A DNA stretch of 64,000 bases from assembly GCF_030384885.1 (NCBI RefSeq), contig NZ_CP128613.1; one strand, given 5' to 3'. How positions within the stretch are numbered: position 1 is the stretch's first letter; the number at the start of each line of letters is the position of its first letter. The notes beneath the pieces are model-generated. The model ran no database searches. It was given only the letters and a program-made list of their open reading frames with translations, and was not told where the DNA came from. Source of the DNA: Escherichia coli. Its GTDB lineage: Bacteria > Pseudomonadota > Gammaproteobacteria > Enterobacterales > Enterobacteriaceae. A program made the position numbers and the translations under genes. Below are positions 4,808-56,292 of the stretch, piece by piece.

Positions 4808-5457
4808 TGTTGGATCTGTTTGCCGATGCTGAACCGTGGCAAGAGCCACTGGCGGCTGGTGCGGTGATTTTGCACCGTTTTGCTTTTAACGCTGCGGAGC
4901 AACTAATCCGCGATATTAATGACGTTGCCAGCCAGTCGCCGTTTCGCCAGATGGTCACCCCCGGGGGATATACCATGTCGGTGGCAATGACCAACTGTGG
5001 GCATCTGGGCTGGACGACCAATCGGCAAGGTTATCTCTATTCGCCCATTGATCCGCAAACAAATAAACCATGGCCCGCCATGCCGCAGAGTTTTCATAAT
5101 TTATGTCAACGTGCGGCTACGGCGGCGGGCTATCCAGATTTCCAGCCAGATGCTTGCCTTATCAACCGCTACGCTCCTGGCGCGAAACTGTCGCTGCATC
5201 AGGATAAAGACGAACCGGATCTGCGCGCGCCGATTGTTTCTGTTTCTCTGGGCTTACCCGCGATTTTTCAATTTGGCGGCCTGAAACGAAATGATCCGCT
5301 AAAAAGATTGTTGTTGGAACATGGCGATGTGGTGGTATGGGGCGGTGAATCGCGGCTGTTTTATCACGGTATTCAACCGTTGAAAGCGGGCTTTCATCCA
5401 CTCACCGCCGACTGCCGCTACAACCTGACATTCCGTCAGGCAGGTAAAAAAGAATAA
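4807..5457 (+). CDS. alkB: Alpha-ketoglutarate-dependent DNA dioxygenase AlkB
   Basis: 216-aa ORF; start overlaps ada stop by 1 nt (ada-alkB operon). Confidence 0.95.
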   Translation: MLDLFADAEPWQEPLAAGAVILHRFAFNAAEQLIRDINDVASQSPFRQMVTPGGYTMSVAMTNCGHLGWTTNRQGYLYSPIDPQTNKPWPAMPQSFHNLCQRAATAAGYPDFQPDACLINRYAPGAKLSLHQDKDEPDLRAPIVSVSLGLPAIFQFGGLKRNDPLKRLLLEHGDVVVWGGESRLFYHGIQPLKAGFHPLTADCRYNLTFRQAGKKE

Positions 5458-5532
5458 AAATAAGAATTATTATTGCTGTACGCGCGAAGATGTTTAAACT
5501 GCGGGCTGTAATTCATTGTCCGGGTTTTTTGC

Positions 5533-7176
5533 ATGGAACTTCTTGTACTTGTCTGGCGGCAGTATCGCTGGCCATTTATCAGTGTGATGGCGCTAAGCCT
5601 CGCCAGTGCGGCATTAGGCATTGGCTTAATTGCTTTTATCAATCAGCGCCTTATCGAAACGGCGGATACCAGTCTGCTGGTGTTGCCGGAGTTTCTCGGT
5701 TTATTGCTGCTGCTAATGGCGGTGACGCTAGGTTCGCAACTGGCGCTCACCACTCTGGGGCATCACTTCGTTTACCGACTGCGTAGCGAATTTATCAAGC
5801 GGATTCTCGATACTCACGTCGAGCGCATTGAACAACTTGGTAGCGCCTCGTTGTTGGCGGGGTTAACCAGCGATGTGCGCAATATCACCATTGCTTTTGT
5901 GCGTCTGCCGGAACTGGTGCAGGGGATCATTCTCACTATCGGTTCCGCGGCGTATTTGTGGATGCTATCGGGCAAAATGTTGCTGGTAACGGCTATCTGG
6001 ATGGCAGTCACCATCTGGGGTGGTTTTATACTGGTGGCGCGGGTGTACAAACATATGGCGACCCTGCGTGAAACCGAAGATAAGCTGTACACGGACTTTC
6101 AAACCGTACTCGAAGGGCGCAAAGAGCTGACTCTGAACCGTGAACGCGCCGAGTATGTGTTTAACAACCTCTACATTCCTGATGCGCAAGAGTATCGCCA
6201 TCATATTATCCGCGCAGACACCTTCCATCTTAGTGCTGTGAACTGGTCAAACATCATGATGCTGGGCGCAATCGGTCTGGTGTTCTGGATGGCGAACAGT
6301 CTCGGTTGGGCTGATACCAACGTTGCCGCGACCTATTCGTTGACGCTGTTATTCCTGCGTACGCCGCTGCTTTCGGCGGTTGGCGCATTACCGACGCTGC
6401 TGACGGCGCAGGTGGCGTTTAACAAGCTGAATAAATTCGAGCTCGCACCTTTCAAAGCTGAGTTTCCGCGTCCGCAGACGTTTCCCAACTGGCAAAGGCT
6501 GGAGCTGCGCAATGTTACGTTTGCTTATCAGGATAACGCGTTTTCCGTTGGGCCGATTAACCTCACCATTAAACGTGGCGAACTGCTGTTTCTGATTGGC
6601 GGCAACGGTAGCGGAAAATCGACACTGGCCATGTTGCTGACGGGCTTGTATCAACCACAAAGCGGCGAAATTTTGCTGGATGGCAAACCTGTCAGCGGCG
6701 AAAAACCGGAAGATTATCGCAAACTGTTTTCGGCAGTGTTTACCGATGTCTGGTTGTTTGATCAACTGCTGGGGCCGGAGGGGAAACCTGCTAACCCGCA
6801 ACTGGTTGAGAAGTGGCTGGCGCAGCTGAAAATGGCTCATAAGCTTGAGTTAAGCAACGGGCGTATTGTTAACCTGAAGTTATCAAAAGGGCAGAAAAAA
6901 CGCGTCGCGCTGTTGCTGGCGCTGGCAGAAGAACGCGATATTATCCTGTTGGATGAATGGGCGGCGGATCAGGACCCACACTTCCGTCGTGAGTTTTATC
7001 AGGTGCTGCTGCCGCTGATGCAGGAGATGGGTAAAACGATTTTCGCCATCAGTCATGATGATCATTACTTTATTCACGCTGACCGCCTGCTGGAAATGCG
7101 CAACGGGCTACTTAGCGAGCTGACAGGCGAAGAGCGCGATGCTGCTTCGCGTGATGCCGTTGCCCGGACGGCATAA
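5533..7176 (+). CDS. yojI: ABC transporter permease/ATPase fusion (microcin J25 efflux, YojI)
   Basis: 547-aa ORF; N-terminal TM domain, C-terminal Walker [10 protein letters not shown] and signature LSKGQKKR. Confidence 0.9.
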
Positions 7177-7381: not shown

Positions 7382-9040
<1,659 letters not shown>

Positions 9041-9075
9041 TGATGTGCCACATCCGGCATGTTATGCCGGATGTG

Positions 9076-9167
9076 GCGTATGCTGATAAGACGCGCCAGC
9101 GTCGCATCAGTCAACCGGCTTGGGCGTTAGATGTCGGATGCGGCGTGACCGCCTTATCCGACCTACG
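9076..9167. repeat. REP / BIME palindromic elements between mqo and eco
   Basis: Two REP-like units (gcgtatgctgataagacgcgccagcgtcgcatcag; gtcggatgcggcgtgaccgccttatccgacctacg) preceded by a hairpin at 9048-9078. Confidence 0.7.
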
Positions 9168-9189
9168 GGGTGGAGCACTTCACGGCAGT

Positions 9190-9678
9190 TTAGAGGACTA
9201 CCGCGTTGTCAATTTTCTCTTCCGCCTTCCAGATGCGGTATTTCACATCTACATTGTCTGGCGTATACACCACGATCGGCAGCTTGCTGTTGTAACGCAG
9301 CATTCCAGCATCGCCCAGATACGCGGTGACAAATTTCTTCTCTTTCTTGCCATCCGGGCAGGCCATCATCGTGGAAACCGGCGAGCTAACTTTATCAAAG
9401 ACGTAATAATCATAGCCCCAGCCTTCCAGCGTTTTGCTTTCCAGCTTCCCGCCGAGACGATGCAAATTGCAATCGACTTCCAGCGTCTGACCGATTAACA
9501 GTTCTACTTTCAGGGTAGATTCATCTTCTTGCGGGGTTAACTGAATCACCTGACGCTTCATGCCTTTTTCAGCTTGCGGATAAGGCGCGATTTTTTCCAG
9601 TGGCTGGACGCTCTCTGCCGCCCAGGCGGAAGTGGTAGCGAAAGCGGCAAACAATACTGCAGGTAGAATGGTCTTCAT
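9190..9678 (-). CDS. eco: Ecotin (periplasmic serine protease inhibitor)
   Basis: 162-aa ORF with signal peptide [20 protein letters not shown]. Confidence 0.9.
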
Positions 9679-9899
9679 TGTTGTATTCCCTTCGTCATTT
9701 ATAGGTTTTCACCGATGATGTCGCTGAAGGTTAACATATTCATCAGATTTATTAATTTGCTTTATGAATAACTTAAAGAACATTCAGACAATTTTACCTG
9801 CTCTTTTAGTGTTAAATTCTGACGAGAGAACAAACCAGTAGAAATATCTCTGGTGAATTAATCGCTATATAAATGTGTTTATAACCATTTGAAATGTGA

Positions 9900-10084
9900 G
9901 CAAAAGCCCGTTTTTGCCACGCTTCCCGCCACTCTTTTGATCCTGCTACAGGTTTTACCTCGATCGGGGTATGCATCTTTGACACATCCTTTAATATCTT
10001 AGCGGCTATAAAAATGGCTTATTAATTATGCGGTTTATTTGGTCGCTCTCAATTTTCAGAGCGTATTAATGATGGAAGGTCAAT
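9900..10084 (+). promoter_or_regulatory. napF promoter/operator region (expected Fnr and NarP/NarL control)
   Basis: AT-rich 400-bp intergenic region upstream of napF; individual sites not resolved by eye. Confidence 0.35.
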
Positions 10085-10579
10085 GTGAAGATTGATGCAT
10101 CCCGTCGGGGCATACTCACTGGTCGCTGGCGCAAAGCCAGTAACGGTATCCGTCCGCCCTGGTCCGGTGATGAATCTCATTTTCTGACCCATTGCACCCG
10201 CTGTGACGCCTGTATTAATGCTTGTGAAAACAACATTCTGCAACGCGGCGCGGGGGGCTATCCGAGCGTTAATTTCAAAAATAACGAGTGCAGCTTCTGT
10301 TATGCCTGCGCGCAAGCTTGCCCCGAATCGCTATTTTCTCCGCGCCACACCAGGGCCTGGGATTTGCAGTTCACCATTGGGGACGCGTGCCTGGCGTATC
10401 AGTCAGTTGAATGCCGCCGCTGTCAGGATAGCTGTGAGCCAATGGCAATTATCTTTCGCCCGACGCTCTCCGGGATCTACCAGCCGCAACTTAATAGCCA
10501 ACTTTGCAACGGATGTGGAGCATGTGCAGCCAGCTGTCCGGTATCAGCCATAACTGCGGAGTATCTCCATGCACACTAA
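10085..10579 (+). CDS. napF: Ferredoxin-type protein NapF
   Basis: 164-aa ORF, GTG start, multiple CxxCxxCxxxCP 4Fe-4S motifs. Confidence 0.9.
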   Translation: MKIDASRRGILTGRWRKASNGIRPPWSGDESHFLTHCTRCDACINACENNILQRGAGGYPSVNFKNNECSFCYACAQACPESLFSPRHTRAWDLQFTIGDACLAYQSVECRRCQDSCEPMAIIFRPTLSGIYQPQLNSQLCNGCGACAASCPVSAITAEYLHAH

Positions 10580-10832
10580 CTGGCAAGTTTGCAGCCTGGT
10601 CGTGCAGGCCAAAAGCGAACGAATTTCAGACATCAGCACCCAACTGAACGCCTTTCCCGGCTGTGAAGTCGCTGTCAGCGACGCGCCGAGCGGTCAGTTG
10701 ATTGTGGTGGTGGAAGCAGAAGACAGCGAAACGCTGATCCAAACCATTGAGTCAGTACGCAACGTAGAGGGCGTGCTGGCGGTGTCGCTGGTTTATCACC
10801 AGCAGGAAGAGCAAGGTGAGGAAACACCATGA
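10569..10832 (+). CDS. napD: NapA chaperone NapD
   Basis: 87-aa ORF overlapping napF end and napA start. Confidence 0.85.
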
Positions 10833-13315
10833 AACTCAGTCGTCGTAGCTTTATGAAAGCTAACGCCGTTGCGGCCGCTGCGGCGGCTGCCGGTCTCAGC
10901 GTGCCGGGCGTTGCCCGCGCCGTTGTTGGTCAGCAGGAAGCCATTAAATGGGATAAAGCACCATGCCGTTTCTGCGGTACTGGTTGTGGCGTTCTGGTCG
11001 GAACGCAGCAGGGGCGTGTGGTGGCCTGTCAGGGCGACCCGGACGCACCGGTTAACCGTGGTCTGAACTGCATTAAGGGCTATTTCCTGCCCAAAATCAT
11101 GTACGGTAAAGACCGTTTGACGCAGCCGCTTCTGCGTATGAAAAACGGTAAATATGACAAAGAAGGCGAGTTCACCCCAATCACCTGGGATCAAGCCTTC
11201 GATGTGATGGAAGAAAAATTCAAAACTGCCCTGAAAGAAAAAGGGCCGGAATCGATCGGTATGTTCGGTTCTGGTCAGTGGACTATCTGGGAAGGTTATG
11301 CCGCGTCCAAGCTGTTCAAAGCGGGCTTCCGTTCGAACAACATCGACCCGAACGCGCGTCACTGTATGGCGTCGGCGGTAGTTGGCTTTATGCGTACCTT
11401 TGGTATGGATGAGCCGATGGGCTGCTATGACGACATCGAACAGGCTGACGCGTTTGTGCTGTGGGGCGCTAACATGGCGGAGATGCACCCGATTCTCTGG
11501 TCGCGCATCACCAACCGTCGTCTCTCTAACCAGAACGTCACCGTGGCGGTGCTTTCTACCTACCAGCATCGTAGCTTCGAGCTGGCGGATAACGGCATCA
11601 TCTTTACGCCACAGTCTGACCTGGTGATCCTGAACTACATCGCCAACTATATCATTCAAAACAACGCGATAAATCAGGACTTCTTTAGCAAACACGTTAA
11701 CCTGCGCAAAGGGGCGACGGACATCGGCTACGGTTTACGTCCGACCCATCCGCTGGAAAAAGCAGCGAAGAATCCAGGTTCTGACGCTTCCGAACCGATG
11801 AGCTTTGAAGATTACAAAGCCTTCGTTGCCGAGTATACGCTGGAAAAAACCGCTGAAATGACCGGCGTGCCGAAAGACCAGCTAGAACAACTGGCGCAGC
11901 TGTATGCCGATCCGAACAAGAAAGTCATCTCCTACTGGACGATGGGCTTCAACCAGCATACCCGTGGCGTGTGGGCCAACAACCTGGTCTACAACCTGCA
12001 CCTGCTGACCGGCAAAATTTCCCAGCCGGGTTGCGGTCCGTTCTCCCTGACCGGGCAGCCTTCCGCGTGTGGTACTGCGCGTGAAGTCGGCACCTTTGCT
12101 CACCGTCTGCCTGCGGACATGGTAGTGACCAACGAGAAACACCGTGATATCTGCGAGAAGAAGTGGAATATCCCGAGCGGCACCATTCCGGCGAAAATCG
12201 GCCTGCACGCGGTGGCACAGGACCGTGCGCTGAAAGACGGCAAACTGAATGTTTACTGGACCATGTGTACCAACAACATGCAAGCCGGGCCGAACATTAA
12301 TGAAGAGCGTATGCCGGGCTGGCGCGATCCGCGCAACTTTATCATCGTTTCCGATCCGTATCCGACAGTCAGTGCGCTGGCAGCCGACTTGATCCTGCCG
12401 ACCGCAATGTGGGTAGAAAAAGAGGGTGCTTACGGTAACGCCGAACGCCGTACTCAATTCTGGCGTCAGCAGGTACAGGCACCGGGCGAAGCGAAATCGG
12501 ATCTCTGGCAGTTAGTTCAGTTCTCCCGCCGCTTCAAAACTGAAGAAGTGTGGCCGGAAGAGTTGCTGGCGAAGAAACCGGAACTGCGTGGAAAAACGCT
12601 GTATGAGGTTCTGTATGCCACCCCGGAAGTGAGCAAATTCCCGGTATCCGAACTGGCAGAAGATCAGTTGAACGATGAATCCCGCGAGCTGGGCTTCTAT
12701 CTGCAAAAAGGGCTGTTCGAAGAGTATGCATGGTTTGGTCGCGGTCACGGTCACGATCTCGCGCCGTTCGATGACTACCACAAAGCGCGCGGTCTGCGCT
12801 GGCCGGTGGTTAACGGTAAAGAAACGCAGTGGCGTTATAGCGAAGGTAACGACCCGTACGTGAAAGCGGGTGAAGGCTACAAGTTCTACGGTAAACCGGA
12901 TGGCAAAGCGGTGATCTTCGCACTGCCGTTCGAACCGGCGGCGGAAGCACCGGATGAAGAGTACGATCTGTGGCTCTCTACCGGGCGTGTCCTGGAGCAC
13001 TGGCACACCGGCAGTATGACTCGCCGTGTACCGGAACTGCACCGTGCCTTCCCGGAAGCGGTCCTGTTTATTCATCCGCTGGATGCGAAAGCGCGCGATC
13101 TGCGTCGTGGCGACAAAGTGAAAGTGGTTTCTCGCCGTGGCGAAGTCATCTCGATTGTTGAAACGCGCGGTCGTAACCGTCCGCCGCAGGGCCTGGTGTA
13201 TATGCCGTTCTTCGACGCCGCACAGCTGGTTAACAAACTGACGCTGGATGCGACCGATCCGCTCTCGAAAGAGACGGACTTCAAGAAGTGTGCGGTCAAA
13301 CTGGAGAAGGTGTAA
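10829..13315 (+). CDS. napA: Periplasmic nitrate reductase catalytic subunit NapA
   Basis: 828-aa ORF; twin-arginine signal [11 protein letters not shown]; molybdopterin oxidoreductase Cys cluster CRFCGTGCG. Confidence 0.95.
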
Positions 13316-13321
13316 GCCATT

Positions 13322-14017
13322 ATGTCCCGGTCAGCGAAACCTCAAAATGGTCGCCGCCGCTTTCTGCGCGATGTCGTTCGCACAGCTGGCGGGCTGGCTG
13401 CCGTGGGTGTGGCGCTGGGGTTACAACAGCAAACCGCACGCGCATCTGGTGTGCGGTTGCGCCCGCCCGGAGCCATAAACGAGAACGCCTTTGCCAGTGC
13501 CTGCGTACGTTGCGGTCAGTGTGTTCAGGCTTGCCCTTACGACACCTTAAAACTGGCGACACTGGCCTCTGGCCTGTCGGCAGGTACGCCGTACTTTGTC
13601 GCGCGGGATATTCCTTGCGAAATGTGTGAGGACATTCCGTGCGCCAAAGTGTGCCCGAGCGGTGCGCTGGATCGAGAGATCGAATCGATCGACGACGCGC
13701 GGATGGGGCTGGCGGTGCTGGTGGATCAGGAGAACTGCCTCAACTTTCAGGGGCTGCGCTGCGATGTTTGCTATCGCGAATGCCCGAAAATTGATGAGGC
13801 AATCACCCTGGAGCTGGAGCGTAACACGCGTACCGGTAAGCACGCCCGTTTTCTGCCGACGGTTCACAGCGACGCCTGTACCGGCTGCGGTAAGTGCGAA
13901 AAAGTGTGCGTGCTGGAACAACCCGCAATCAAGGTGTTACCGCTGTCACTGGCGAAAGGGGAGTTAGGTCACCATTACCGCTTCGGCTGGCTGGAGGGGA
14001 ACAATGGCAAATCGTAA
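13322..14017 (+). CDS. napG: Ferredoxin-type protein NapG
   Basis: 231-aa ORF; Tat-like RRRFLRD; four 4Fe-4S Cys motifs. Confidence 0.9.
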
Positions 14018-14867
14018 ACGTGACGCCGGGCGCGAGGCGCTGGAGAAAAAAGGCTGGTGGCGCAGTCACCGTTGGCTGGTGTTGCGTCGCCTTTGTCAGT
14101 TCTTCGTGCTGGGAATGTTTTTGAGCGGCCCGTGGTTTGGTGTGTGGATCTTGCACGGCAACTACAGCAGTAGCTTGTTATTCGACACCGTTCCACTGAC
14201 CGATCCGCTGATGACGTTGCAAAGTCTTGCCAGCGGTCATCTGCCTGCCACGGTGGCGCTGACCGGTGCGGTGATTATCACCGTGCTCTACGCCCTGGCA
14301 GGAAAGCGATTATTTTGCAGCTGGGTCTGCCCGCTGAACCCGATTACCGATTTAGCAAACTGGTTACGCAGGCGTTTTGACCTCAATCAGTCTGCGACGA
14401 TCCCACGCCACATCCGCTACGTGCTGTTGGTGGTCATTCTGGTGGGTTCGGCCTTAACCGGCACGCTCATCTGGGAATGGATCAACCCCGTTTCCCTGAT
14501 GGGGCGCAGCCTGGTAATGGGATTCGGCAGCGGCGCGCTGCTTATTCTCGCGCTGTTTTTATTTGATCTACTGGTCGTTGAACACGGCTGGTGCGGGCAC
14601 ATTTGTCCGGTTGGTGCACTGTATGGCGTGCTGGGTAGTAAAGGTGTGATTACCGTTGCGGCCACCGATCGGCAGAAATGTAACCGCTGTATGGATTGTT
14701 TTCATGTTTGCCCGGAACCGCATGTGCTACGTGCCCCGGTGCTGGATGAACAAAGCCCGGTGCAGGTCACCAGCCGCGATTGCATGACGTGCGGTCGCTG
14801 CGTGGATGTCTGTTCTGAGGATGTATTTACAATAACTACACGATGGAGTTCGGGAGCGAAATCATGA
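14004..14867 (+). CDS. napH: Ferredoxin-type membrane protein NapH
   Basis: 287-aa ORF; TM helices plus C-terminal CxxCxxCxxxCP motifs. Confidence 0.9.
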
Positions 14868-15313
14868 AAAGCCATGACCTGAAGAAAGCGCTGTGTCAAT
14901 GGACGGCGATGCTGGCCCTGGTGGTAAGCGGCGCGGTTTGGGCGGCTAATGGCGTCGATTTTAGCCAGTCGCCGGAAGTATCCGGGACGCAGGAAGGGGC
15001 CATTCGGATGCCAAAAGAGCAGGATCGGATGCCGCTGAACTATGTGAATCAGCCGCCAATGATCCCGCATAGCGTTGAAGGTTATCAGGTAACGACCAAT
15101 ACCAACCGTTGCTTGCAATGCCACGGTGTCGAAAGCTATCGCACCACTGGCGCGCCGCGCATCAGTCCTACTCACTTTATGGACAGCGACGGCAAAGTGG
15201 GCGCAGAAGTGGCTCCACGTCGTTACTTCTGTCTGCAATGCCACGTGCCGCAGGCTGATACCGCGCCAATCGTGGGGAATACCTTTACCCCGTCAAAAGG
15301 TTACGGGAAATAA
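14864..15313 (+). CDS. napB: Diheme cytochrome c NapB
   Basis: 149 aa from ATG at 14864 (overlaps napH stop as ATGA); two CxxCH heme motifs (CLQCH). Confidence 0.9.
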   Translation: MKSHDLKKALCQWTAMLALVVSGAVWAANGVDFSQSPEVSGTQEGAIRMPKEQDRMPLNYVNQPPMIPHSVEGYQVTTNTNRCLQCHGVESYRTTGAPRISPTHFMDSDGKVGAEVAPRRYFCLQCHVPQADTAPIVGNTFTPSKGYGK

Positions 15314-15322
15314 GAGGTTATT

Positions 15323-15925
15323 ATGGGAAATTCTGACCGTAAGCCTGGTCTGATTAAGCGCCTGTGGAAATGGTGGCGTACCCCCAGCCGTCTGGCGCTA
15401 GGGACGCTGCTGTTGATCGGTTTTGTCGGCGGCATCGTTTTCTGGGGCGGCTTTAACACCGGGATGGAAAAAGCCAATACCGAAGAGTTCTGCATTAGCT
15501 GCCACGAAATGCGTAACACGGTGTATCAGGAATACATGGATTCCGTGCACTACAACAACCGTAGCGGCGTCCGTGCGACCTGTCCGGATTGTCACGTTCC
15601 GCACGAGTTTGTGCCGAAGATGATACGCAAGCTCAAAGCAAGTAAAGAGCTGTATGGTAAAATTTTTGGCGTTATTGACACGCCGCAGAAATTTGAAGCT
15701 CATCGCCTGACGATGGCACAGAATGAGTGGCGGCGCATGAAGGACAATAACTCGCAGGAGTGTCGTAACTGTCACAACTTCGAGTATATGGATACAACCG
15801 CCCAGAAATCAGTTGCCGCTAAGATGCACGACCAGGCGGTGAAAGATGGGCAAACCTGTATTGATTGCCATAAAGGGATAGCGCACAAGCTGCCCGATAT
15901 GCGCGAAGTCGAGCCAGGTTTTTAA
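15323..15925 (+). CDS. napC: Tetraheme cytochrome c NapC (NapC/NirT family)
   Basis: 200-aa ORF with four CxxCH motifs (CISCH, CPDCH, CRNCH, CIDCH). Confidence 0.9.
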   Translation: MGNSDRKPGLIKRLWKWWRTPSRLALGTLLLIGFVGGIVFWGGFNTGMEKANTEEFCISCHEMRNTVYQEYMDSVHYNNRSGVRATCPDCHVPHEFVPKMIRKLKASKELYGKIFGVIDTPQKFEAHRLTMAQNEWRRMKDNNSQECRNCHNFEYMDTTAQKSVAAKMHDQAVKDGQTCIDCHKGIAHKLPDMREVEPGF

Positions 15926-15937
15926 CAGGGTTATTGC

Positions 15938-16561
15938 GTGGGTATGCTTGAAGCCAGAGAGTTACTTTGCGAGCGGGATGAACGAACCTTATTTAGTGGC
16001 TTGTCATTTACGCTGAACGCAGGCGAGTGGGTACAAATCACCGGTAGCAACGGCGCGGGGAAGACAACGCTTCTCCGTTTGCTGACGGGGTTGTCTCGCC
16101 CTGACGCAGGCGAGGTTCTCTGGCAAGGGCAGCCCTTGCATCAGGTACGCGACAGCTACCATCAAAACCTGTTATGGATAGGCCATCAGCCGGGGATCAA
16201 AACCCGGCTGACGGCGTTAGAAAATCTGCACTTTTATCATCGCGATGGCGATACCGCACAATGTCTGGAAGCCCTGGCGCAGGCCGGGCTTGCCGGATTC
16301 GAAGATATTCCTGTAAATCAACTTTCTGCCGGGCAACAACGCCGCGTCGCTTTAGCGCGTCTGTGGCTGACCCGTGCCACGTTATGGATACTCGACGAGC
16401 CTTTTACCGCGATTGACGTTAACGGCGTCGATCGTCTGACCCAGCGTATGGCGCAGCATACGGAGCAGGGGGGGATTGTGATTCTGACTACCCACCAGCC
16501 GCTCAACGTTACTGAAAGTAAAATCCGCCGCATTTCACTGACGAAAACGAGGGCCGAATAA
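15938..16561 (+). CDS. ccmA: Heme exporter ATP-binding protein CcmA
   Basis: 207-aa ORF; Walker [10 protein letters not shown]; LSAGQQRR signature. Confidence 0.9.
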
Positions 16562-36090: not shown

Positions 36091-37116
36091 CTACACCGCC
36101 TTATTAGGATCAAATGCGTCGCGGACGGCTTCACCAATAAAGATCAGCAAAGACAACAATATCGCCACCGACAAGAAGGCGGTGATCCCAAGCCACGGGG
36201 CCTGAAGGTTATTTTTCCCTTGTAACAGCAGTTCGCCGAGTGACGGTGAACCGAGCGGCAGACCGAAGCCGAGGAAATCGAGTGAGGTCAGGGTGGTGAT
36301 CGAACTACATAAAATAAACGGTAAAAAGGTGAGGGTAGCGACCATGGCATTTGGCAACATATGACGCAGGATGATACTGCGATCGCTGACGCCAAGCGCC
36401 TGCGCCGCACGGATGTAGTCGAAATTACGGGTACGTAAAAACTCCGCCCGCACCACGCCGACCAGACTCATCCAGCCAAACAAGACGGTAATTGCCAACA
36501 GCCACCAGAAGTTAGGCTGTACGACGCTGGAAAGTAAAATAATCAAAAACAGCGTCGGCATCCCCGACCATACTTCAATAAAACGTTGCCCCCAGAGATC
36601 GATTTTACCGCCATAATAGCCTTGTAGCGCCCCCGCCAACACGCCCATCACGCTGGAGCAGAGGGTCAGCATCAGGCCAAACAGAACTGAGATCCGCGTG
36701 CCATAGAGAATGCGCGCCAGCACATCGCCGCCATTGGCATCCGTTCCCAGCCAGTTTTGCCGGGAGGGTGGAGAAGGGAAGGGCTTATCGGTAGCAAAGT
36801 TGATACTGGTAGCACCAAAGCGAATCGGTGCCCACAGTACCCAGCCTTTATCTTCCAACCGCTGTTTCAGCCACGGGTCCTGATAATCAGCCTGGCTTGC
36901 CAGCGGGCCGCCAAAATCGCTTTCGCTGTAGTTTTTCAACAACGGGAAATACCAACTGCCGTCATAACGTACCAGCAACGGTTTATCGTTGGCGATAAGT
37001 TCAGAACACAAACTCAAACCAAATAAGACGAGGAAAATCCATAACGACCAGTAGCCGCGACGGTTATGACGAAAACGCGCCCAACGGGCCTGATTGACGG
37101 GGCTGAGTCGCGACAT
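36091..37116 (-). CDS. yejE: Peptide ABC transporter permease YejE
   Basis: 341-aa membrane ORF of the ABC permease family. Confidence 0.9.
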   Translation of the reverse strand: MSRLSPVNQARWARFRHNRRGYWSLWIFLVLFGLSLCSELIANDKPLLVRYDGSWYFPLLKNYSESDFGGPLASQADYQDPWLKQRLEDKGWVLWAPIRFGATSINFATDKPFPSPPSRQNWLGTDANGGDVLARILYGTRISVLFGLMLTLCSSVMGVLAGALQGYYGGKIDLWGQRFIEVWSGMPTLFLIILLSSVVQPNFWWLLAITVLFGWMSLVGVVRAEFLRTRNFDYIRAAQALGVSDRSIILRHMLPNAMVATLTFLPFILCSSITTLTSLDFLGFGLPLGSPSLGELLLQGKNNLQAPWLGITAFLSVAILLSLLIFIGEAVRDAFDPNKAV

Positions 37117-38210
37117 TAACGTCCCTCAAAATCTATACGCGGATCGACCAGCGTATAGCTGATATCACTGACAATATTCAGCAGCAGGCCAATCAGGGTG
37201 AAAATATACAAGGTACCAAACATTACAGGATAATCGCGCGAGACGGTCGCTTCGTAGCCCAGTAAGCCAAGACCATTGAGTGAAAACATCACCTCAATCA
37301 GCAGCGAGCCGGTAAAAAACATGCTGATAAACGTCGCCGGAAAACCGGCAATCACCAGCAGCATGGCGTTGCGGAACACATGTTTCCAGAGAATATTTTT
37401 TTCACTTACCCCTTTCGCACGGGCGGTCACCACGTATTGCTTGCGCACTTCATCAAGGAATGAGTTTTTTGTCAGCATGGTCAGCGCCGCAAAGCCGCCA
37501 ATCACCGTCGCCAGCACCGGCAGCGTGATATGCCACAGATAATCGGTGATTTTCTGATACCACGGCAGCGAATCAAAGTTAGCGGAAACCAGGCCGCGCA
37601 GAGGGAACAGGTCGAAATAGCTGCCGCCCGCGAAGAAGACAATCAGCAGGATGGCAAACAAAAAGGCCGGAATGGCGTAGCCGATGATGATAAATGCGCT
37701 ACTCCAGACGTCAAAGCGGCTACCATTATAAACAGCTTTGCGAATACCCAGCGGAATCGACACCAGATAGATAATCAGCGTGCTCCACAATCCGAGGGTG
37801 ATGGAAACCGGCAGACTGTCTTTAATCAGCGTCAGCACCGAGGCGCTGCGAAACAGGCTATCGCCAAAATCAAAGCGGATGTAGTCCCAGAGCATTTTGA
37901 AGTAACGTTCGTGGATCGGCTTATCAAAACCGTAGCGATGAGTGATCTCGGCGATCACTTCTGGATCTAATCCGCGTCCGCCACGGTAATTACTGTCGCT
38001 GATATTGCCGACGCCCGTTTGTGCATGGCTGGCACGAACACCTTCACCGCCAGCGCCGGGTAATACTCCGGCATTACCAAACTCAATGGCGGCGATGGCC
38101 TGGTCGACCGGACCGCCAGGCGCAATTTGCACGATGAAAAAGTTGATAGTGATAATCGCCCATAACGTTGGGATCACCAGCAACAGACGGCGAATCAGAT
38201 AAGCGCCCAT
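37116..38210 (-). CDS. yejB: Peptide ABC transporter permease YejB
   Basis: 364-aa membrane ORF; start overlaps yejE stop region. Confidence 0.9.
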
Positions 38211-40025
38211 CTACTCTCCCTGTTGTCTGGCTGACGGCAGTTTCGTCGCTTTATTAACGTCATACCACCAGGTATCGATACCCAGGCTGTAAACAGGGCG
38301 CACTGCGGGTTGAGAGAATTTATCCCACCAGGCGAGACGGTCTTCCGCCATATACCACATTGGCAGCATGTAATAATTCCACGTTAATACGCGATCCAGT
38401 GCTCGCCCCAACGGCAGTAATTTTTCTTTATTTCCCTGCGCGGCAATAATTTGGTTGATCAGCGAGTCGATAACCGGACTTTGCACGCCGGGGGCATTAT
38501 AAGTGGAGTTGATATATTCCGATGACCAGGAAATCTGTAAATCGGAACTGGGCCACGGCATCGCCCGCCATACGCGCGGCATCATGTCATAGTCGCGACT
38601 GCGCATGCGGTTGGTGATTTGCGAGTTATCCACCTTGCGAATGTCCATGTTGATACCCAGCCGTTGCAGGCTGTGCTGGAACGGTAATACCCACTGACTA
38701 TTGCTGCTTGCGGGAAGCAATAATTCAAAGCTGAGAGGCTGACCCGTTGTGGCATTAACGCGTTGCTGACCCTTTAGCACCCAGCCCGCTTCATTGAGAA
38801 GTTTGTCGGCTTTTAACAGGTTGTCACGATCGTAGCCATCGCCTTTCGATACCGGCGGCTGGTAGATTTGTGTGAAGACTTCTGGCGGAAGATCTTTTTT
38901 CATTGGTGCCAGAAGCACCAGCTCCGCGGCGTCGGGGTAATTTCTGGCTGCGTATTCGGTATTCTGAAAATAACTGTTCGTGCGACTCCAGGCATTGTAA
39001 AACAACGCCTTGTTCATCCATTCAAAGTCAAAGGCGAGAGTGATCGCTTCCCGGACCCGGCGATCGCTGAATACCGGACGTTGGATATTAAACGCCAGCC
39101 AGCGCGTATCCTGGGCTGATTCGTTCTTTTGCTCATCTTTGATGATGTATTTCTTATCGAAATTTTTACCGGTATAGCGCGTGGCCCAGTTTTTGGCGTC
39201 GTTTTCCATACGCAAATCAAATGCACCGGCTTTAAACGCTTCAAAGGCGACATTATCATCGAGGTAGTAATCGTAGCGAATGGTGTCGAAATTCCAGCGT
39301 CCACGGTTTACCGGTAAGTTTGCTGCCCAGTAATCTTTCACGCGGGAATAGACAATATTTTGCCCCATTTTCCAGGACGTAATTCGGTACGGACCACTGG
39401 CAAGCGGAGGCGTGGCGATCGGATCGCTAAGTTTGTGATTCTTCCAGTACTTTTCTGGAAATACCGGCAGCGAAAACAGGCTCAGCATATCTTCTTTGCC
39501 GGGTTTCGCTAACTCAATACGCACGGTTAATGGTGCAATGGCTTTGACGGTGGTGCCTTTGTAGACCAGACGAAATTGCGGCACGCCTTCGGTCATAAAT
39601 TTTTGAAAAGTAAACTCTACATCGCGGGCAGTAATGGGGGAACCATCATGAAAACGGGCGCGCGGATTAATTGCGACCTCCACCCAGGAATAATCGTCAG
39701 CATAGCGCGCACTTTCGGCAATCAGCGGATAATAACTACCTGGCTCGTCATCGGAAGTAGTAAATAGCGTGTCGTACAGCTGCTCGGTGCGTGCGCCTGC
39801 GTTGCCGCGCAGTGCATAGCGGTTGAAATTATCGAAGGTGCCGAGGGCTGACAACGTTATCTGCCCACCTTTTGGCGCGGCGGGGTTCACATAATCAAAA
39901 TGGTTGAAATTAAACGCGTACCGGGGTTCGCCCAGTACCGCAAAGGCATAGCTTTCCTTGATAGCCTGCGCCTGCGCACCAAAGGTGAACAGAGCGATAA
40001 ACAGCAGCAGTATGCGCACAATCAT
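38211..40025 (-). CDS. yejA: Periplasmic oligopeptide-binding protein YejA
   Basis: 604 aa from ATG at 40023-40025 ([21 protein letters not shown]...); track ORF begins at an upstream TTG. Confidence 0.9.
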
Positions 40026-55054: not shown

Positions 55055-56292
55055 ATGGATATAATGAGAAGTTTGGTGGGTATGGTGGTATTGCTGGCAA
55101 TTGCATTCTTATTGTCAGTGAATAAAAAAGGTATCAGCATACGCACGGTCGGGGCTGCATTGCTGCTGCAAATCGCTATTGGTGGCATTATGCTCTACTT
55201 CCCACCGGGAAAATGGGCAGTAGAGCAGGCGGCATTAGGCGTGCATAAAGTGATGTCTTACAGTGATGCCGGTAGCGCCTTCATTTTTGGTTCGCTGGTT
55301 GGGCCGAAAATGGATGTCCTGTTTGATGGCGCGGGCTTTATCTTCGCCTTTCGCGTACTTCCGGCAATTATTTTCGTCACAGCGCTCATCAGCCTGCTGT
55401 ACTACATTGGCGTGATGGGGCTGCTAATCCGCATTCTTGGCAGTATTTTTCAGAAAGCCCTCAACATCAGCAAAATCGAATCTTTTGTTGCGGTTACCAC
55501 TATTTTCCTCGGGCAAAATGAGATCCCGGCGATCGTTAAACCGTTTATCGATCGCATGAATCGCAACGAGCTATTTACGGCAATTTGTAGCGGGATGGCG
55601 TCCATTGCCGGTTCGATGATGATTGGTTATGCCGGAATGGGCGTACCAATTGACTACCTGTTAGCGGCATCGCTGATGGTATTTTGTTTGCACGTATTCT
55701 TAGCCCAGCCACCGAGCCTTCGCAGGTGACATTTGAAAATCTGTCGTTCAGCGAAACGCCGCCAAAAAGCTTTATCGAAGCGGCGGCGAGCGGTGCGATG
55801 ACCGGGTTGAAAATCGCCGCTGGTGTGGCGACGGTGGTAATGGCGTTTGTGGCAATTATTGCGCTGATCAACGGCATTATCGGCGGAATTGGTGGCTGGT
55901 TTGGTTTTTCCAATGCCTCTCTGGAAAGTATTTTTGGCTATGTGCTGGCACCGCTGGCGTGGATCATGGGCGTGGACTGGAGTGATGCCAACCTTGCGGG
56001 TAGCCTGATTGGGCAGAAACTGGCGATTAACGAATTCGTCGCTTACCTGAGTTTCTCCCCATACCTGCAAACGGGCGGCACGCTGGAAGTGAAAACCATT
56101 GCGATTATCTCCTTTGCGCTTTGTGGTTTTGCTAACTTTGGTTCTATCGGTGTTGTCGTTGGGGCGTTTTCGGCTATTTCGCCAAAACGCGCGCCGGAAA
56201 TCGCTCAGCTTGGGTTACGGGCGTTGGCAGCAGCAACGCTTTCAAACCTGATGAGTGCGACCATTGCCGGGTTCTTTATTGGTTTAGCTTGA
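55055..56292 (+). pseudogene. psuT: Nucleoside (putative pseudouridine) transporter PsuT/YeiM, frameshifted into two ORFs (55055-55729 and 55684-56292)
   Basis: The two ORFs are in different frames and together span 1238 nt versus 1251 nt for intact paralog nupX; by-eye alignment places a 13-nt gap between 55679 and 55680. Confidence 0.7.

Follow-up and report, generated by a model that had tools for sequence, protein, structure and literature searches.

YojI and YejABEF of Escherichia coli: Two Core ABC Transporters With Microcin Phenotypes on One 64-kb Chromosomal Stretch

Introduction

Does the presence of two microcin-related ABC transporters of opposite direction, the exporter gene yojI and the importer operon yejABEF, on one stretch of Escherichia coli DNA carry a functional message, or do both loci simply share a place on the map? 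The stretch, called here the window, covers 64 kb of the E. coli chromosome from rcsD to lysP. An earlier note had described both loci as housekeeping genes and the pairing as a remark on function instead of a new system.

Microcin J25 (MccJ25) is exported by YojI together with TolC, as PMC10233263, PMC8277102 and PMC10926693 state with reference to Delgado 2005, and this efflux goes back to essentially one primary report. For YejABEF, deletion of any yej gene leads to microcin C resistance, and the system carries peptides of about 7-13 residues or longer (PMC10924461). A natural yejB frameshift has been found in microcin C-resistant isolates (PMC10926693). The two microcins follow different routes into the cell, since MccJ25 enters via FhuA, TonB and SbmA and microcin C via OmpF and YejABEF (PMC10233263). 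These microcin phenotypes are the only demonstrated activities of YojI and Yej and are not established physiological roles.

We conclude that YojI and YejABEF are very probably unrelated, already characterised core ABC transporters of E. coli that share the window by map position. The identity, intactness, domains, fold and core status of the genes and the absence of microcin genes derive from the present analysis, the transport activities from the literature.

Results

The Window and Its Genomic Setting

The window is nearly identical to positions 230845-294844 of E. coli 2013C-4282 (99.97% identity, 5 mismatches, 2 indels). In this annotated genome 61 features match the window, all of them ordinary chromosomal genes, and all annotated genes from rcsD to lysP are accounted for. 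The K-12 chromosome is collinear with the window at 96-97% nucleotide identity. The annotated starts and stops of yojI and of the yej genes agree exactly with the coordinates given in the earlier note.

A gap of 27,323 bp separates yojI from the yej operon, and the two loci lie on opposite strands. The interval holds 28 protein genes and one tRNA gene (tRNA-Pro), including mqo, eco, the nap operon, the ccm operon, narP, yejO, yejM, radD and bcr. With ccmAB, located between the other two, the window contains three ABC systems. The 4.6-Mb genome of E. coli encodes roughly 70 ABC systems, or about one per 64-kb window. An enrichment of ABC systems in the window (n = 3) was considered and rejected, and two such systems within 64 kb are no more than chance expectation. 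Searches for promoter and terminator consensus motifs near yojI and yejABEF yielded about as many matches as shuffled sequence does and are uninformative.

YojI Is an Intact Member of Its Equivalog Family

The yojI gene (5533..7176, plus strand) is an uninterrupted open reading frame encoding an ABC half-transporter of 547 amino acids, whose transmembrane domain lies at the N terminus and whose ATP-binding domain lies at the C terminus. The protein matches the NCBIfam YojI equivalog model NF007813 with 1049 bits over residues 1-546 of 547 (cut-off 604). It also belongs to the subfamily TIGR01194 ('cyclic peptide export ABC transporter'), with 367.2 bits against a cut-off of 286.2. Pfam recognizes the transmembrane region and one ABC_tran domain (104 bits). 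Hydropathy confines the hydrophobic segments to residues 1-300, and the ATP-binding motifs follow: Walker A (GGNGSGKST) at 356, signature (LSKGQ) at 450, Walker B (LLDEW) at 472 and H-loop (SHD) at 507.

Of 5,426 complete E. coli genomes, 5,421 carry the gene, never on a plasmid, and in this number of genomes RefSeq labels the corresponding stretch 'microcin J25 efflux ABC transporter YojI'. High-identity 'plasmid' matches to YojI proved to be mislabelled chromosomes or fragments (e.g., 'plasmids' of 4.9 Mb) and provide no evidence of mobility. The order alkB - yojI - mqo is common to the window, K-12, 2013C-4282 and Citrobacter werkmanii; the E. coli arrangement of yojI is thus kept in Citrobacter.

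YejABEF Is an Intact Peptide Importer Operon

On the minus strand, the operon order yejA-yejB-yejE-yejF is intact and the genes abut each other (38211/38210, 37116/37116, 36091/36089), with the yejE start overlapping the yejB stop by one base. The first gene, yejA (38211..40025), encodes a periplasmic cluster-C peptide-binding protein of 604 amino acids, whose sole hydrophobic segment is the signal-peptide-like stretch of residues 1-19. YejA carries the Pfam domain SBP_bac_5 (221 bits). No NCBIfam model reached its cut-off for this protein; from residue 20 to residue 604 it matches, over the full length, the mature E. coli YejA of the crystal structures 8fsr, 7z6f and 7atr (1346 bits). The two permease subunits are YejB (37116..38210, 364 amino acids; NF011712 with 793.3 bits, cut-off 445; Pfam BPD_transp_1) and YejE (36091..37116, 341 amino acids; NF011596 with 778.9 bits, cut-off 439; Pfam BPD_transp_1 and OppC_N). 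The ATPase YejF (34500..36089, 529 amino acids; NF011713 with 1096.3 bits, cut-off 834) consists of two fused ATP-binding domains, both matched by Pfam ABC_tran, with Walker A motifs at 42 and 319, Walker B motifs at 177 and 446 and no membrane segment. At least 5423 of the 5426 complete E. coli genomes carry the operon, which is never found on a plasmid.

Names, Directions and the Absence of Microcin Genes

If the open reading frames belonged to other transporter families, the names yojI and yejABEF would be wrong. The probability of this is negligible. We found nothing in its favor, and such an assignment fails because the NCBIfam, Pfam and YejA-structure matches all agree with the names. 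Scores lie far above the equivalog cut-offs, the genes are 96-97% identical to their K-12 counterparts at the nucleotide level with the same synteny, and YejA corresponds to solved structures. The homology check that the earlier note had proposed therefore leaves its identification of both loci (5533-7176 and 34500-40025) in place. The opposite transport directions it had mentioned are likewise borne out by architecture: YojI has the fused transmembrane and nucleotide-binding domains of an exporter, whereas Yej has the parts of an importer, namely a binding protein, a pair of permeases and an ATPase with two nucleotide-binding domains.

To look for microcin genes, we used as queries the microcin C precursor, MRTGNAN, and the MccJ25 core peptide. 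A six-frame search of the window revealed neither MRTGNAN (up to 1 mismatch) nor the MccJ25 core peptide (up to 8 mismatches), and the gene inventory of the near-identical genome 2013C-4282 contains no mcj genes and no microcin production or immunity cluster. The statement of the earlier note that microcin biosynthesis and immunity genes are absent from the window holds.

Fold of YojI

A PDB sequence search with the YojI transmembrane domain alone gave no significant match (best E = 0.11), and McjD was not among the five PDB matches at E <= 10. Since this domain thus has no significant match among solved structures, the fold was tested by structure prediction. An AlphaFold2 model built from an alignment of 75 sequences (pLDDT 92.1, pTM 0.84) shows long helices that extend as far as residue 301, with the ATP-binding domain after them. 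Foldseek relates this model to TM287/288, MsbA, PCAT1 and TmrAB with TM-scores of 0.78-0.82 at an identity of at most 21%, and the siderophore importers YbtPQ and IrtAB also appear among its matches. On the basis of the predicted model, YojI is a half-transporter with a type IV ABC exporter fold, which presumably forms a homodimer and passes through an alternating-access cycle.

Relatives of YojI Adjoin Siderophore Genes

Relatives of YojI were gathered by tblastn of plasmid records, an exhaustive profile search, in which 2,398 representatives had E <= 1e-30, and a genome scan. The latter yielded at least 80 loci, of which roughly half matched the ATP-binding domain only and were ignored. Outside the Enterobacteriaceae, all 12 informative relatives at 44-64% identity among the matches listed adjoin genes for siderophore transport or synthesis, and seven of these 12, again among the matches listed, lie in or beside Fhu-type ferric-hydroxamate uptake operons. 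Ten of the siderophore-adjacent relatives were scored against NF007813, and all ten pass its equivalog cut-off.

The arrangement is well illustrated by Aeromonas caviae (64% identity), in which a TonB-dependent receptor gene and the YojI-like gene are followed by FhuC-, FhuD- and FhuB-like genes; here, FhuB scores above its equivalog cut-off and the best model for the receptor is FhuA. The YojI-like gene of Marinobacter daqiaonensis (62%) is divergent from FhuD- and FhuB-like genes, that of Vreelandella aquamarina (63%) adjoins a FhuC-like gene, and Vibrio bivalvicida (45%) has FhuC, FhuD, FhuB, the YojI-like gene and an NRPS gene in that order. Among the metagenomic representatives, P0004, P0008 and P0010 combine the YojI-like gene with FhuCDB-like genes and a receptor, P0002 shows a receptor, the YojI-like gene and then a SIP reductase, and in P0005 and P0011 the receptor is located immediately upstream. 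Azotobacter has the order ECF sigma factor, YojI-like, MbtH and NRPS, and the Methylomagnum gene is accompanied by a receptor and PepSY. No siderophore genes were found in the neighborhood of P0013; P0009 lies on a short contig and adds nothing to the picture. At 30-41% identity, most relatives are located within NRPS clusters for hydroxamate siderophores.

Iron Control of yojI

The 75-bp spacer between alkB and yojI contains a predicted Fur-box-like array, AATAAAAATAAGAATTATTATTGCT (5453..5477), in which three overlapping stretches agree with the Fur box GATAATGATAATCATTATC at 13/19, 13/19 and 12/19 positions. A score of 13 is reached at only 25 of the roughly 64,000 positions of the window, and we regard 5453-5477 as a putative Fur site. 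Citrobacter werkmanii has the same motif, and stronger sites are found before YojI-like genes of Vibrio bivalvicida (16/19), Methylomagnum (14/19) and Vreelandella (14/19).

According to the literature, Fur targets yojI directly in both MG1655 and CFT073 (PMC7157518), and the gene is derepressed under iron limitation (PMC7157518, PMC10164565) and falls into the Fur-2 iModulon together with fhuA, fhuC, fhuD and fhuF (PMC10164565). PMC7157518 groups yojI under 'proteins of unknown function', and its supplementary table gives what appear to be expression ratios of about 9 and 11. In a paper of 2026, YojI is still among the proteins without an assigned function.

Discussion

The yojI and yejABEF loci of the window are already known, textbook core genes whose annotations mention their microcin phenotypes, and both are ordinary and intact. 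The view of the earlier note that it described function instead of a new system thus stands. The term 'housekeeping' holds only in part. Both loci belong to the core genome (>99.9% of 5,426 complete genomes), yet both systems are dispensable, and the word does not suit yojI because the gene is controlled by Fur, of which it is a direct target.

Both transporters can be placed in a simple working model. As a homodimeric type IV exporter, YojI would turn from an inward-facing to an outward-facing state upon ATP binding and hydrolysis; the outward-facing form would expel a cytoplasmic substrate, which would then leave the cell through TolC. The one demonstrated substrate is MccJ25, an RNA-polymerase inhibitor, whose intracellular level YojI lowers. 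YejABEF is an Opp/Dpp-type importer, in which YejA binds peptides of ~7-13 residues or more in the periplasm and docks on the YejB/YejE permease pair, while YejF powers import. Microcin C hijacks this route and is then processed to a toxic aspartyl-adenylate analogue. The practical use of the two loci lies in susceptibility prediction: in this strain, sensitivity to microcin C is to be expected from the intact yejABEF operon and a baseline tolerance to microcin J25 from the intact yojI gene.

It could be supposed that YojI and YejABEF work as a functional pair, one exporting and the other importing the same peptide-like metabolite, and that the shared window reflects this link. In favor of this, the genome that carries representative P0028 and a plasmid of Vibrio harveyi both show a YojI-like gene directly followed by YejA-, YejB-, YejE- and YejF-like genes and a nitroreductase gene, in a cluster that adjoins a TonB-dependent receptor and NRPS genes. 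The Yej-like proteins of this cluster, 33-47% identical to those of the window, find their best NCBIfam matches in the Yej models, but they score below the Yej cut-offs. Moreover, the adjacency is limited to one marine subclade and to 2 of about 49 family loci examined among the matches listed. The known substrates of YojI and Yej differ, and no report of shared regulation was found in the literature searched. In E. coli, the co-location must be considered incidental because the two microcins use different routes and because 27 kb of unrelated genes separate the loci, which lie on opposite strands. We therefore see no sign of a functional YojI-Yej link in E. coli and consider such a pair highly improbable; the co-location carries no functional message. 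The marine lineage slightly weakens the word 'unrelated', as a YojI-like gene directly preceding yejABEF-like genes indicates that the two families can be used together.

A second reading concerns YojI only. The transporter might primarily serve iron or siderophore transport, with MccJ25 efflux as a side activity, and in one version the exported compounds would be used or altered hydroxamate siderophores, desferri-ferrichrome for instance. On this reading the gene would still be yojI, but calling its product a microcin-related transporter would mislead. Several observations point in this direction: the siderophore genes beside all 12 informative relatives of 44-64% identity among the matches listed, the equivalog scores of the ten that were scored, the NRPS hydroxamate-siderophore clusters around most of the more distant relatives, membership in TIGR01194, the Fur-2 iModulon and direct Fur control, the Fur-box-like sites upstream of yojI and several relatives (up to 16/19) and the fact that FhuA is the MccJ25 receptor. 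Since MccJ25 enters through FhuA and relatives of YojI adjoin Fhu-type operons, YojI may natively handle hydroxamate siderophores. Against this, gene neighborhood is circumstantial, yojI of E. coli has alkB and mqo as its neighbors and is not near fhuACDB, and the fold relatives YbtPQ and IrtAB are importers, so that in Fhu operons the function might be something other than export. Siderophore import as by YbtPQ and IrtAB may indeed be an alternative role for the YojI relatives. Overall, we hold a primary siderophore function to be possible rather than probable.

A more specific form of the siderophore reading can be formulated, with support from equivalogs in fhu-type operons (Aeromonas, Marinobacter, Vreelandella, Vibrio and several uncultured lineages), the strong Fur repression of yojI in E. 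coli and the Fur-box-like array. In E. coli, FhuF releases the iron (PMC11357680), and in Pseudomonas the recycling of ferrichrome follows its acylation (Hannauer 2010, as cited in PMC11322547). E. coli YojI could be an orphaned member of a hydroxamate-siderophore transporter family that, as an exporter of the inner membrane, recycles iron-free or acetylated ferrichrome-type siderophores after FhuF has acted. MccJ25 would enter by mimicking ferrichrome at FhuA, and its efflux by YojI would be a by-product of the same resemblance to the native substrate. We rate this scenario as unlikely, though worth pursuing. A search of a limited literature collection returned no paper tying YojI to Fhu operons, ferrichrome or PvdE, nor YejABEF to siderophores. 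This siderophore lead for YojI, to which neighborhoods and Fur control both point, is what the analysis adds to existing knowledge. If true, siderophore handling would explain why a chromosomal pump recognizes a FhuA-targeting lasso peptide, and it would supply a missing step in the recycling of ferrichrome.

Comparison With Known Systems

The closest reference for both loci is E. coli K-12. Its YojI (b2211) has the same length of 547 amino acids, the same neighbors (alkB upstream, mqo downstream), 540 of 547 identical residues and the same ATP-binding motifs. The seven substitutions in the window protein (I159V, V166I, A303E, A316T, T322R, Q391K and Q526L) touch no catalytic motif; A303E, located in the interdomain linker, is absent from both K-12 and the closest genome, 2013C-4282. 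K-12 YejABEF, for which YejA structures are available (7atr, 7z6f, 8fsq-8fss), shows the same gene order and the same tight spacing. Here, YejB is identical, and YejE, YejF and YejA differ by 4, 7 and 10 substitutions, respectively, which are strain-level only and affect no ATP-binding motif. The 11-residue self-binding motif of YejA is present in the window protein.

McjD, the plasmid-encoded ABC transporter for microcin J25 export and immunity (PDB 4PL0), shares with YojI the type IV exporter fold class, and both have the same substrate and the same TolC dependence (PMC8277102). Yet, YojI is not a close relative of McjD. It falls into TIGR01194 instead, has no McjD among the PDB matches of its transmembrane domain at E <= 10 and no mcjABC genes nearby, and the mcjABCD cluster that accompanies a McjD-type immunity exporter is missing. 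The siderophore exporters within TIGR01194, such as PvdE of the pyoverdine clusters, are a further point of reference: YojI passes the cut-off of the subfamily and its relatives at 30-41% identity occur in NRPS hydroxamate-siderophore clusters, whereas E. coli yojI itself stands without a biosynthetic or siderophore-transport neighbor.

YejABEF, finally, shares the five-part design of the Opp/Dpp/Nik peptide-nickel importers and of the Yej systems of Sinorhizobium, Brucella and Salmonella. The Pfam families common to Yej and the Opp/Dpp/Nik importers are SBP_bac_5, BPD_transp_1 in two permeases and ABC_tran. Yej differs from Opp/Dpp/Nik in its single ATPase polypeptide with two ATP-binding domains and in a larger binding protein with a 35-residue N-terminal extension (PMC10924461). 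All of these importers, Yej systems included, are promiscuous in the uptake of peptides and peptide antibiotics.

YojI Relatives and Their Genomic Neighborhoods

YojI-equivalog genes lie within or next to Fhu-type ferric-hydroxamate uptake operons at seven of the inspected loci surrounding YojI relatives in other bacteria (each in its own coordinates): L012 of Aeromonas caviae (7838-15362), L019 (2178-9547), L027 (108-7678), L029 (3489-11614), L033 (6872-11662), L034 (7783-10252) and L036 (6279-11623). The operons comprise FhuC-, FhuD- and FhuB-like genes together with a TonB-dependent siderophore receptor, and the YojI-like proteins encoded there pass the equivalog cut-off (NCBIfam NF007813, 604 bits) with 44-64% identity to YojI of the window. 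In the window itself, the spacer between alkB and yojI carries a predicted Fur-box-like array (5453-5477) with 13/19, 13/19 and 12/19 matches to the Fur consensus, which is also kept in Citrobacter. Published Fur ChIP and expression data include yojI in the direct Fur regulon (PMC7157518), and the predicted array fits this placement.

A different association is encoded on Vibrio harveyi plasmid p.N8T11-A (L006/L010, 5830-13529) and at locus L013 (10001-17704). Here, a YojI-like exporter is clustered on one strand with YejA-, YejB-, YejE- and YejF-like importer components and a nitroreductase, next to genes for a TonB-dependent receptor, TauD, MbtH and large NRPSs. In the annotation of p.N8T11-A the yejE-like gene appears split.

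The YojI family extends beyond single-length exporters and also comprises tandem double-length forms and far longer fusion proteins with extra domains. Among the representative proteins of the profile search, P0014-P0022 and P0038 measure approximately 1100 amino acids, and P0053, P0082, P0103 and P0114 approximately 1350-1400 amino acids.

RNA Elements

Three RNA elements were located on the minus strand of the window, i.e., the MicF sRNA upstream of ompC (975-1068), tRNA-Pro(GGG) (26099-26175) and an L25 ribosomal-protein leader (29893-29918). MicF represses OmpF. Since OmpF is the porin through which microcin C crosses the outer membrane (PMC10233263), MicF adds a third microcin-relevant element to yojI and yejABEF.

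Strain and Lineage Differences

Within yojI, the window differs from the closest complete genome, 2013C-4282, at one base only: an A replaces C at 6440, and the resulting substitution, A303E, falls in the segment that links the membrane domain to the ATP-binding domain. K-12 shares the Ala of 2013C-4282. The yojI of another complete genome, 2020CK-00188, likewise differs from that of the window by a single base. Compared to 2013C-4282, a 13-bp deletion (55676-55677) breaks psuT into two ORFs (55055-55729 and 55684-56292), and psuT, which encodes a putative pseudouridine transporter, is probably a pseudogene in this strain. The ccmA gene (15938-16561; 207 codons) is open in the window, held in frame by a run of seven Gs (16468-16474), whereas 2013C-4282 has six Gs and an annotated frameshift; the discrepancy stems from a homopolymer prone to slippage or else from a sequencing error in the 2013C-4282 record.

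Because identity with K-12 is merely 96-97% along the whole window and only 2 of 5,421 complete genomes carry a yojI at least 99% identical (next best 98.0%), the strain belongs to an E. coli lineage that is both rare and divergent. Between mqo and eco, the window has one copy of the naRNA4 (CssrE) repeat of approximately 113 bp (9081-9193), compared to five tandem copies at this site in K-12, and the autotransporter gene yejO (23403-25997), interrupted by IS5 in K-12, is an intact ORF of 864 codons.
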